Translations under genes and position numbers: made by a program | NCBI RefSeq assembly: GCF_988243305.1 | Contig: NZ_OZ547136.1 | DNA length: 64,000 bases | Strand: one strand, 5' to 3' | The notes under the pieces: generated by a model | The model's database searches: none | Told to the model about the DNA's origin: nothing | Seen by the model: the letters and a program-made list of their open reading frames with translations, nothing else | Part shown: positions 26,477 through 27,604 of the stretch, piece after piece | Layout: the number at the start of each line of letters is the position of its first letter | Numbering within the stretch: position 1 is the stretch's first letter

Positions 26477-27604
26477 TTAGAACTGGTAAACCAGACCCAG
26501 AGCTACGATGTTATCAGTGTTGATGCCAGCGTCACGAGTGAACTGGTTGTCGTCCAGCAGGTTGATTTTGTAGTCAACATAGGTGGACATGTTTTTGTTG
26601 AAGTAGTAAGTAGCACCAACATCAACATATTTCAGGATATCTTCGTCGTCGTAGTTACGACCATTGATGACACCCAGGTTTTTACCTTTAGACTGCAGGT
26701 AAGCCAGGGACGGACGCAGACCGAAGTCGAACTGGTACTGAGCAACAGCTTCGAAGTTCTGTGCTTTGTTCGCCCAACCCAGGGAACCTACGCGAGTTGC
26801 GTTGTAGGTCTGGGTGTACTGAGCAGCCAGGTAGATGTTGTTAGCGTCGTATTTCAGACCACCAGTGTAGGTTTCAGCACGGTCGCCAGTACCGATCAGA
26901 CCAGTGTTGTTCTGATCCCAGGTACGTTTGGAGCTGGAGATCGCACCACCGATACCAAAGCCTTCGTAATCATAAGTGATAGATCCGCCAACGCCGTCGC
27001 CGTTCTGACGCAGAGCTTTACGACCATTGTTGGTGATGCCATGGCCAGTGAAATCCGGATCACTTTCACCGCTTACGCTACCATTCTGGCCCTGGTACTG
27101 AACAGCAAAGTTCAGGCCATCAACCAGACCGAAGAAGTCAGTGTTACGGTAGGTCGCGAAGCCGTTACCACGCTGCTGCATAAAGTTGTCAGAACCGTAA
27201 GTGTCGCCACCGAATTCTGGCAGTACGTCGGTCCAGGAAGTTACGTCGTAAACTACGCCGTAGTTACGACCATAGTCGATAGAACCGATGTCCTGGAATT
27301 TCAGACCAGCAAATGCCACACGGGTCCAGGAGTTGTTTTCGCTTTCCGGAGCGTTGCCCTGGATCTGATATTCCCACTGGCCGTAACCGGTCAGCTGGTC
27401 AGTAACCTGAGTTTCACCTTTGAAGCCAAGACGCATGTAGGTCTGGTCGCCATCTACAGACTTGTCGTCAGAGAAATAGTGCAGGCCGTCTACTTTACCG
27501 TACAGATCTAATTTGTTGCCGTCTTTGTTGTAAACTTCAGCAGCGTTTGCTGCGCCTGCTACCAGCAGAGCTGGGACCAGGAGGGACAGTACTTTAACTT
27601 TCAT
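26477..27604 (-). CDS. ompC: Outer-membrane porin OmpC (375-codon allele, not the 367-codon K-12 form)
   Basis: [47 protein letters not shown] ... ALGLVYQF; classical porin with C-terminal Phe. Confidence 0.95.

Follow-up and report, generated by a model that had tools for sequence, protein, structure and literature searches.

The OmpC porin of this strain is eight residues longer than that of E. coli K-12. Where do these residues come from, and do they change what the porin does? The stretch of DNA analysed, referred to here as the window, consists of 64,000 nucleotides. Its ompC is almost certainly a functional chromosomal gene that codes for an osmoporin with a pore and a regulation like those of K-12, and its surface loops form a known modular combination that would have been assembled and spread by homologous recombination.

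The gene and its product

The ompC coding sequence occupies 26477-27604 (minus strand). It begins with ATG and is intact, consisting of 375 codons and a stop codon; its identity is given by the list of open reading frames, the score with the NCBIfam model for OmpC, and synteny. The translation contains both of the peptide segments that the earlier note on this DNA had quoted. Compared with the NCBIfam model "porin OmpC" (NF007841), the protein reaches 756.9 bits, where the cutoff is 484. Homology E-values near 1e-228 exclude a chance pattern, and the gene is therefore a real one.

The genes around it are arranged in the order apbE, ompC, micF (divergent), and rcsD, and the open reading frames are collinear with those of annotated E. 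coli genomes. Downstream of ompC are apbE, ada, and alkB. Upstream is the divergent micF, followed by rcsD. In 5,411 complete E. coli genomes, the locus at the same syntenic position is annotated as ompC.

The signal peptide comprises codons 1-21 (27542-27604, minus strand) and is identical in sequence to that of K-12. In alignments with the window protein, every solved OmpC chain begins at residue 22 (AEVYN), which implies a signal peptide of 21 residues and a mature protein of 354. Residues 22-375 align without gaps to the solved OmpC structure 2xe1, with 344 of 354 residues identical (97%). In this alignment the window protein ends in YQF, with an aromatic last residue. Because of the 97% identity to a crystal structure, the porin fold is settled. 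An AlphaFold2 model was computed from a shallow alignment of 11 sequences, OmpC alleles that are 93-99% identical to the window protein, and, with a mean pLDDT of 27, is uninformative. The product is expected to be a trimeric 16-stranded beta-barrel that acts as a general diffusion channel.

A stop-free open reading frame of 364 amino acids runs antisense to ompC, at 26417-27511 on the plus strand. Most likely it reflects the strong codon bias of ompC and is not a gene.

Differences from the K-12 protein

In K-12 BW25113, ompC is annotated with a length of 1104 bp, corresponding to 367 codons and a stop codon (WP_000865568.1). The earlier note had given this number for K-12 and had described the window gene as a longer allele with a conserved barrel and changed surface loops. 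The number is correct, and the list of open reading frames together with the BW25113 annotation bears out the difference in length. The note had allowed that the two proteins might turn out to be identical. In their alignment, 345 of 375 columns are identical, 22 residues are substituted, and 8 are inserted.

The inserted residues fall into two loops. D182-P183-D184 and H188 add four residues to L4, and V312-I313-N314-G315 add four to L7. Together, the loops L1, L2, L4, L5, and L7 contain all 8 insertions and 20 of the 22 substitutions. The segments that hold the differences are positions 47 and 49 (L1), 85, 86, and 88 (L2), 173-196 (L4), 229-239 (L5), and 312-317 (L7). Elsewhere in the gene, 17 codons differ synonymously, and only two residues are replaced, both conservatively (V106I and F109I). 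L4, L5, and L7 are delimited as in Beck et al. 2016, and Lou et al. 2011 (PMC3203869) provide support for L2; published OmpC topology is the basis for assigning L1 and L2 and for counting V106I and F109I as non-loop changes. Neither the constriction loop L3 nor the signal peptide differs from K-12. This concentration of the differences in the loops supports the reading of the earlier note, which had recognised a conserved core.

Surface loops and their classes

Variation among OmpC proteins has been surveyed on a large scale. Beck et al. 2016 compared 2,707 E. coli OmpC proteins and found more than 220 distinct sequences (PMC5056734). The variation was concentrated in L4 (33 variants), L5 (30 variants), and L7 (13 variants), which occurred in many combinations (PMC5056734).

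The three loops of the window protein can be assigned to classes of this catalogue by alignment and by comparison with S2 Table of PMC5056734, in which the strings L4-b2, L5-a11, and L7-e are exactly equal to those of the window. Loop L4 consists of codons 173-201 (27002-27088, minus strand) and belongs to class b2. It is four residues longer than in K-12, and the inserted codons are located at 27053-27061 and 27041-27043. Loop L5 consists of codons 227-241 (26882-26926, minus strand) and belongs to class a11, the CFT073 type; it has the same length as in K-12 but 7 substitutions. Loop L7 consists of codons 309-320 (26645-26680, minus strand) and belongs to class e, the type of O157 strain EC869. 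It is also four residues longer than in K-12, with the inserted codons at 26660-26671.

The comparison with OmpC alleles of other E. coli, which the earlier note had proposed, thus leads to the catalogued classes b2/a11/e. Strain KTE144, entry 117 in S1 Table of Beck et al. 2016, already has the same combination (PMC5056734). Both the loop combination, catalogued in 2016, and the exact protein are already known in public databases.

Promoter, micF and terminator

The 5' leader of ompC, its promoter, and the OmpR-binding region are found at 27605-27790 (minus strand). In an alignment of the intergenic region, every base of this stretch is the same as in K-12. The whole region between ompC and rcsD has 7 differences from K-12 in 738 nt. 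The one nearest to the promoter stretch is a single A/G difference just upstream of it, near 27808. The OmpR boxes and the -35 and -10 hexamers of the K-12 ompC promoter would lie within 27605-27790. Since promoter and leader are identical to those of K-12, normal OmpR-dependent, osmoregulated expression is likely.

The gene for the antisense sRNA micF is divergent from ompC and is located at 27938-28031 on the plus strand. It matches the Rfam family RF00033 over its full length (1-94), with 116.8 bits compared to a gathering score of 79. It differs from the K-12 gene by one base. This difference is at about 28020, in the 3' arm of the terminator hairpin; the base in the window is that of the Rfam consensus, and the stem is fully Watson-Crick paired. 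A scan for a consensus also finds a terminator-like hairpin with a T-run just past the ompC stop codon, at 26439-26458 (minus strand), with the sequence AAAGGGCCTGCGGGCCCTTT followed by TTTCATTGTT.

Occurrence among sequenced genomes

An exact-sequence look-up finds the protein on 272 public contigs under the name "porin OmpC [Escherichia coli]" (EEY7858092.1 and UniProt A0A1V2GL38 are examples). Contig ABXTAX010000004.1 of the draft E. coli assembly GCA_047678995.1 agrees with the window at every position of a 7,128 bp comparison. The 5,426 complete RefSeq E. coli genomes include no identical allele at the DNA level, and their closest match reaches 99.5%. Draft assemblies do contain the exact allele, but among finished genomes it is uncommon.

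A full-length match to ompC occurs in 5,411 of these 5,426 genomes. Sorted by identity to the window over the whole gene, 61 records have at least 99%, 216 have 95-99%, 4,470 have 90-95%, and 683 have 80-90%. The long b-type L4 was searched with a 96-nt probe across the loop and occurs in 269 of the 5,426 genomes (5.0%), including Nissle 1917, ATCC 25922, and LF82.

Gene length was surveyed in 39 full-length hits drawn at even spacing. The most frequent length is that of K-12, 1104 bp (18 hits), followed by 1128 bp (5 hits), 1122 bp (4 hits), and 1095 bp (3 hits). Lengths of 1092, 1125, and 1131 bp occur twice each, and lengths of 1098, 1106, and 1107 bp once each. Because length is this polymorphic, it cannot identify an allele. 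For instance, O145 strains also have an OmpC of 375 residues, but they reach it by a different set of loops, in which L4 is short and L5 long. The loop classes published for O157 OmpC predict a protein of 367 residues, the length of K-12 OmpC, with different loops.

The allele has little importance beyond strain typing, as the polymorphism of OmpC loops, their modular recombination, and their effects on phages and contact-dependent inhibition (CDI) are well documented.

Recombination at the ompC locus

The mosaic structure of the allele can be followed along the gene. Over nt 1-912, the allele of strain 104/H299 (WP_000865545.1; classes b2/a11/i) differs from the window by 1 nt, and its b2-type L4 and a11-type L5 are identical. 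In nt 913-1008 the two are 12 nt apart. Here the strain 104 allele has an L7 with TIGT (class i) where the window has VING (class e), and its residue 300 is V where that of the window is L. The allele of O145 strain RM9467, on the other hand, is identical to the window in DNA sequence over nt 865-1008.

A similar comparison can be made with the allele of LHM10-1 (WP_000865544.1; classes b1/a11/e), which shares L5 and L7 with the window and, at 99.5%, is the best whole-gene match among complete genomes. The two alleles are separated by 6 nt and one residue (S181N, which makes the window loop b2 and the other b1), while their flanks are about 1.5-2% apart. This allele, with its e-type L7, has no differences from the window in nt 913-1008, and 2 differing sites in the codon-alignment bin that starts at nt 1009. 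The pattern of differences indicates that the window ompC is a recombinational mosaic, strain-104-like in nt 1-912 and with an L7 block of the O157/O145 type.

A second trace of recombination extends beyond the gene. Site-by-site comparison with four other E. coli assemblies that encode the same protein (L004, L006, L007, and L009) reveals an identical tract of about 3.7 kb at 25286-28995, covering apbE, ompC, micF, and the start of rcsD. Identity in this tract is 100%, and the flanks are 0.8-1.5% different. Outside the tract, rcsD has 17-19 differences in 2,262 sites, and the downstream flank has 46-47 in 3,000. In a further sequence, L008, the identical tract is narrower and corresponds to ompC and its promoter (26415-27784). 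An identical ompC tract amid diverged flanks is the footprint of homologous recombination that moved ompC between lineages. The ompC locus has been described as a recombination hotspot (PMC6970295), with which the footprint in the window agrees. It is at this hotspot that the b2/a11/e loops would have been assembled and from which they would have spread, and the window provides a clean local example of it.

The rest of the window varies in its relatedness to other genomes as well. The best matches among complete RefSeq E. coli genomes are 98.6% for 15-39 kb, 99.2% for 39-64 kb, and 99.1% for the rcs region. Divergence from strain GN06156 is mostly 0.2-5% per kb, and near zero at 45.5-55 kb. 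Such uneven divergence, together with the distance of the finished genomes, indicates that this segment of the chromosome is a recombination mosaic and that its lineage is poorly represented among finished genomes. A Shigella or other non-E. coli origin was considered, since no piece of 7-25 kb has a match above 98.6-99.2% in complete E. coli genomes. It was rejected because the genes at 2,101-64,000 follow the E. coli order, with no large insertions, and because the E. coli draft assembly GCA_047678995.1 is identical throughout the 7,128 bp compared.

Compared with GN06156, the most divergent stretch downstream of gyrA is the gene for the autotransporter adhesin yfaL/ehaC (55172-58900, minus strand), where as many as 27 of 500 nt differ, which represents another surface-protein polymorphism. 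Two further genes are uninterrupted open reading frames: the autotransporter gene yejO (863 codons; 3161-5752, minus strand) and yfaS, which codes for an alpha-2-macroglobulin homologue of 1539 residues (44620-49239, minus strand). Both are presumably disrupted in K-12, and their intact state here fits a non-laboratory isolate.

Predicted recognition by phages and CDI systems

In several alleles, the surface loops of OmpC have been linked to ligand recognition. L4 and L5 determine recognition by CdiA-EC536; the CFT073 allele, which combines a b-type L4 with an a11 L5, was not recognised and conferred resistance (PMC5056734). A phenylalanine substitution in L4 abolishes adsorption of phage T4, and T4 is unable to use O157 OmpC, which is 94% identical (PMC5221442). 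For phage PP01, the four-residue insertion GVIN in L7 is necessary for adsorption to O157 OmpC. Inserting GVIN into K-12 OmpC from which the GFTS motif of L4 had been deleted was sufficient for PP01 (PMC12892980).

By analogy with these alleles, altered recognition by ligands that read the surface loops is to be expected for the window protein. CdiA-EC536 probably would not bind it, since its pairing of a b-type L4 with an a11 L5 is that of the resistant CFT073 allele. Likewise, recognition by gp37 of T4 is probably altered because L4 differs, and the protein would be a poor T4 receptor. Its L7 contains the four-residue GVIN insertion of PP01-type receptors, and with this GVING motif it could be bound by gp38 of PP01-like phages. 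The allele may thus help to predict which OmpC-dependent phages (such as PP01-like phages) or CDI systems might recognise the strain.

The earlier note had stated that loop variation affects phage and colicin receptor specificity, antibiotic permeation, and antigenicity. The receptor role, for phages and CDI, is supported by published work (PMC5056734, PMC12892980, PMC5221442). For this allele, a change in antibiotic permeation is not predicted, as L3 is that of K-12 and the residues corresponding to G137 and R195 are kept (PMC6970295).

A more far-reaching reading would make these predictions the cause of the transfer. The b2/a11/e combination would then have a receptor profile unlike that of any tested allele, binding PP01-like gp38 through its O157-type L7 and escaping CdiA-EC536 and T4 through an L4 and an L5 of the uropathogen type. 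A recent transfer under pressure from phages or CDI, and not neutral recombination, would have left the 3.7 kb tract. Such a selective history is conceivable but rather unlikely.

Permeation, resistance and artefact

Some variants of ompC are associated with antibiotic resistance, among them G137D and G132D in L3, R195L, and the combination of D137 and E195. The window protein has none of these and keeps both G137 and R199, the equivalent of R195 in K-12. Permeation of solutes and antibiotics should be unchanged, and the allele gives no indication of a porin-based change in permeability.

The window also contains gyrA (51615-54242, minus strand), in which codon 83 (53994-53996) specifies leucine. 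This is the S83L substitution of GyrA; D87 is wild type. The gyrA segment at about 45.5-55 kb, some 9.5 kb long, differs from that of GN06156, which has the wild-type S83, at 3 sites, one of which is S83L. As only two other sites differ from a strain with S83, the substitution is a point mutation that is independent of the ompC tract. The possibility that S83L arrived with ompC by recombination was considered and rejected on the same count of 3 sites in about 9.5 kb.

According to the earlier note, the allele fits a natural or clinical background, consistent with gyrA S83L. The substitution is real, but its tie to the ompC allele is only circumstantial, and the long L4 also occurs in commensal or probiotic strains (Nissle 1917) and in ATCC 25922.

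A stronger form of this idea would regard the allele as an antibiotic-selected ompC with reduced permeability, comparable to the ST38/phylogroup-D-like allele or to G137D, G132D, and R195L, and as part of a resistance genotype with GyrA S83L. The two genes do share the window, ompC is surrounded by a recombination footprint, and carbapenemase-producing lineages are known to have replaced ompC by recombination (PMC6970295). There is also a change of charge in L4, where D192 of K-12 corresponds to K196 here, three residues from R195. However, this part of L4 (RKALRQ) is the ordinary b-type of CFT073, Nissle 1917, ATCC 25922, and LF82, so that the loop type is shared with susceptible reference strains and probiotic strains. 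The whole of L3 is that of K-12, G137 and R199 have not become D or L/E, and S83L is a single point change that arose independently of ompC. Resistance selection is thus a very improbable explanation for the allele.

The weakest reading takes the 8 additional codons for an error of sequencing or assembly, or the gene for a porin paralogue (ompF, phoE, ompN, or nmpC). It has the length difference from K-12 as its sole support, is of negligible probability, and is already refuted. The reading frame is intact, the insertions keep the frame and equal loop variants of the catalogue, and the same protein is present on 272 independent contigs. The OmpF and PhoE models remain below their cutoffs (475.9 bits for a cutoff of 583 and 450.7 bits for a cutoff of 599) while the OmpC model is far above its own, and the synteny is that of the ompC locus.

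The preferred reading remains that of a functional ompC with recombined loops. Its product would be a normally regulated and normally permeable OmpC trimer whose outward face is unlike that of K-12.

Relation to known alleles

K-12 OmpC (WP_000865568.1; PDB 2j1n; classes a1/a1/a) shares with the window protein its locus, signal peptide, barrel core, L3, promoter and OmpR region, and C-terminus. It differs in that L4 and L7 are each shorter by 4 residues, and all but two of the 22 substitutions are in L1, L2, L4, L5, and L7.

The ompC alleles of carbapenemase producers from ST38 and phylogroup D come from the same locus, a recombination hotspot (PMC6970295), and the window likewise has a local footprint. 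These alleles carry D137 and E195, whereas the window keeps G and R at the corresponding positions.

The OmpC proteins of O157:H7 and O145 also have an L7 of class e and include the receptor of phage PP01. Their GVING block in L7 is the same as that of the window. Their other loops are different: L4 is of the short c-type, and L5 belongs to class a6 in O157 and to the long class b7 in O145.

The OmpC of uropathogenic E. coli O6, found in CFT073 and Nissle 1917 (WP_000865543.1; PDB 2xe1; classes b1/a11/c), has 375 residues, the same long type of L4, and the same L5 as the window protein. The structure 2xe1 is that of OmpC from E. coli O6:H1 (Q8CVW1) and was solved by Lou et al. 2011 (PMC3203869). 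In that study, clinical and K-12 OmpC structures superposed at 0.44 Å; single-residue differences between clinical and K-12 OmpC were mostly in L2, L4, and L5, and L3 was highly conserved (PMC3203869). Going from the window to the O6 protein, ten residues change: I109F, S181N, I218V, G220A, I222V, L300V, I313V, N314A, D358A, and N365D. Over the gene there are 39 nt differences, and L7 of the O6 protein reads VVAG where that of the window reads VING.
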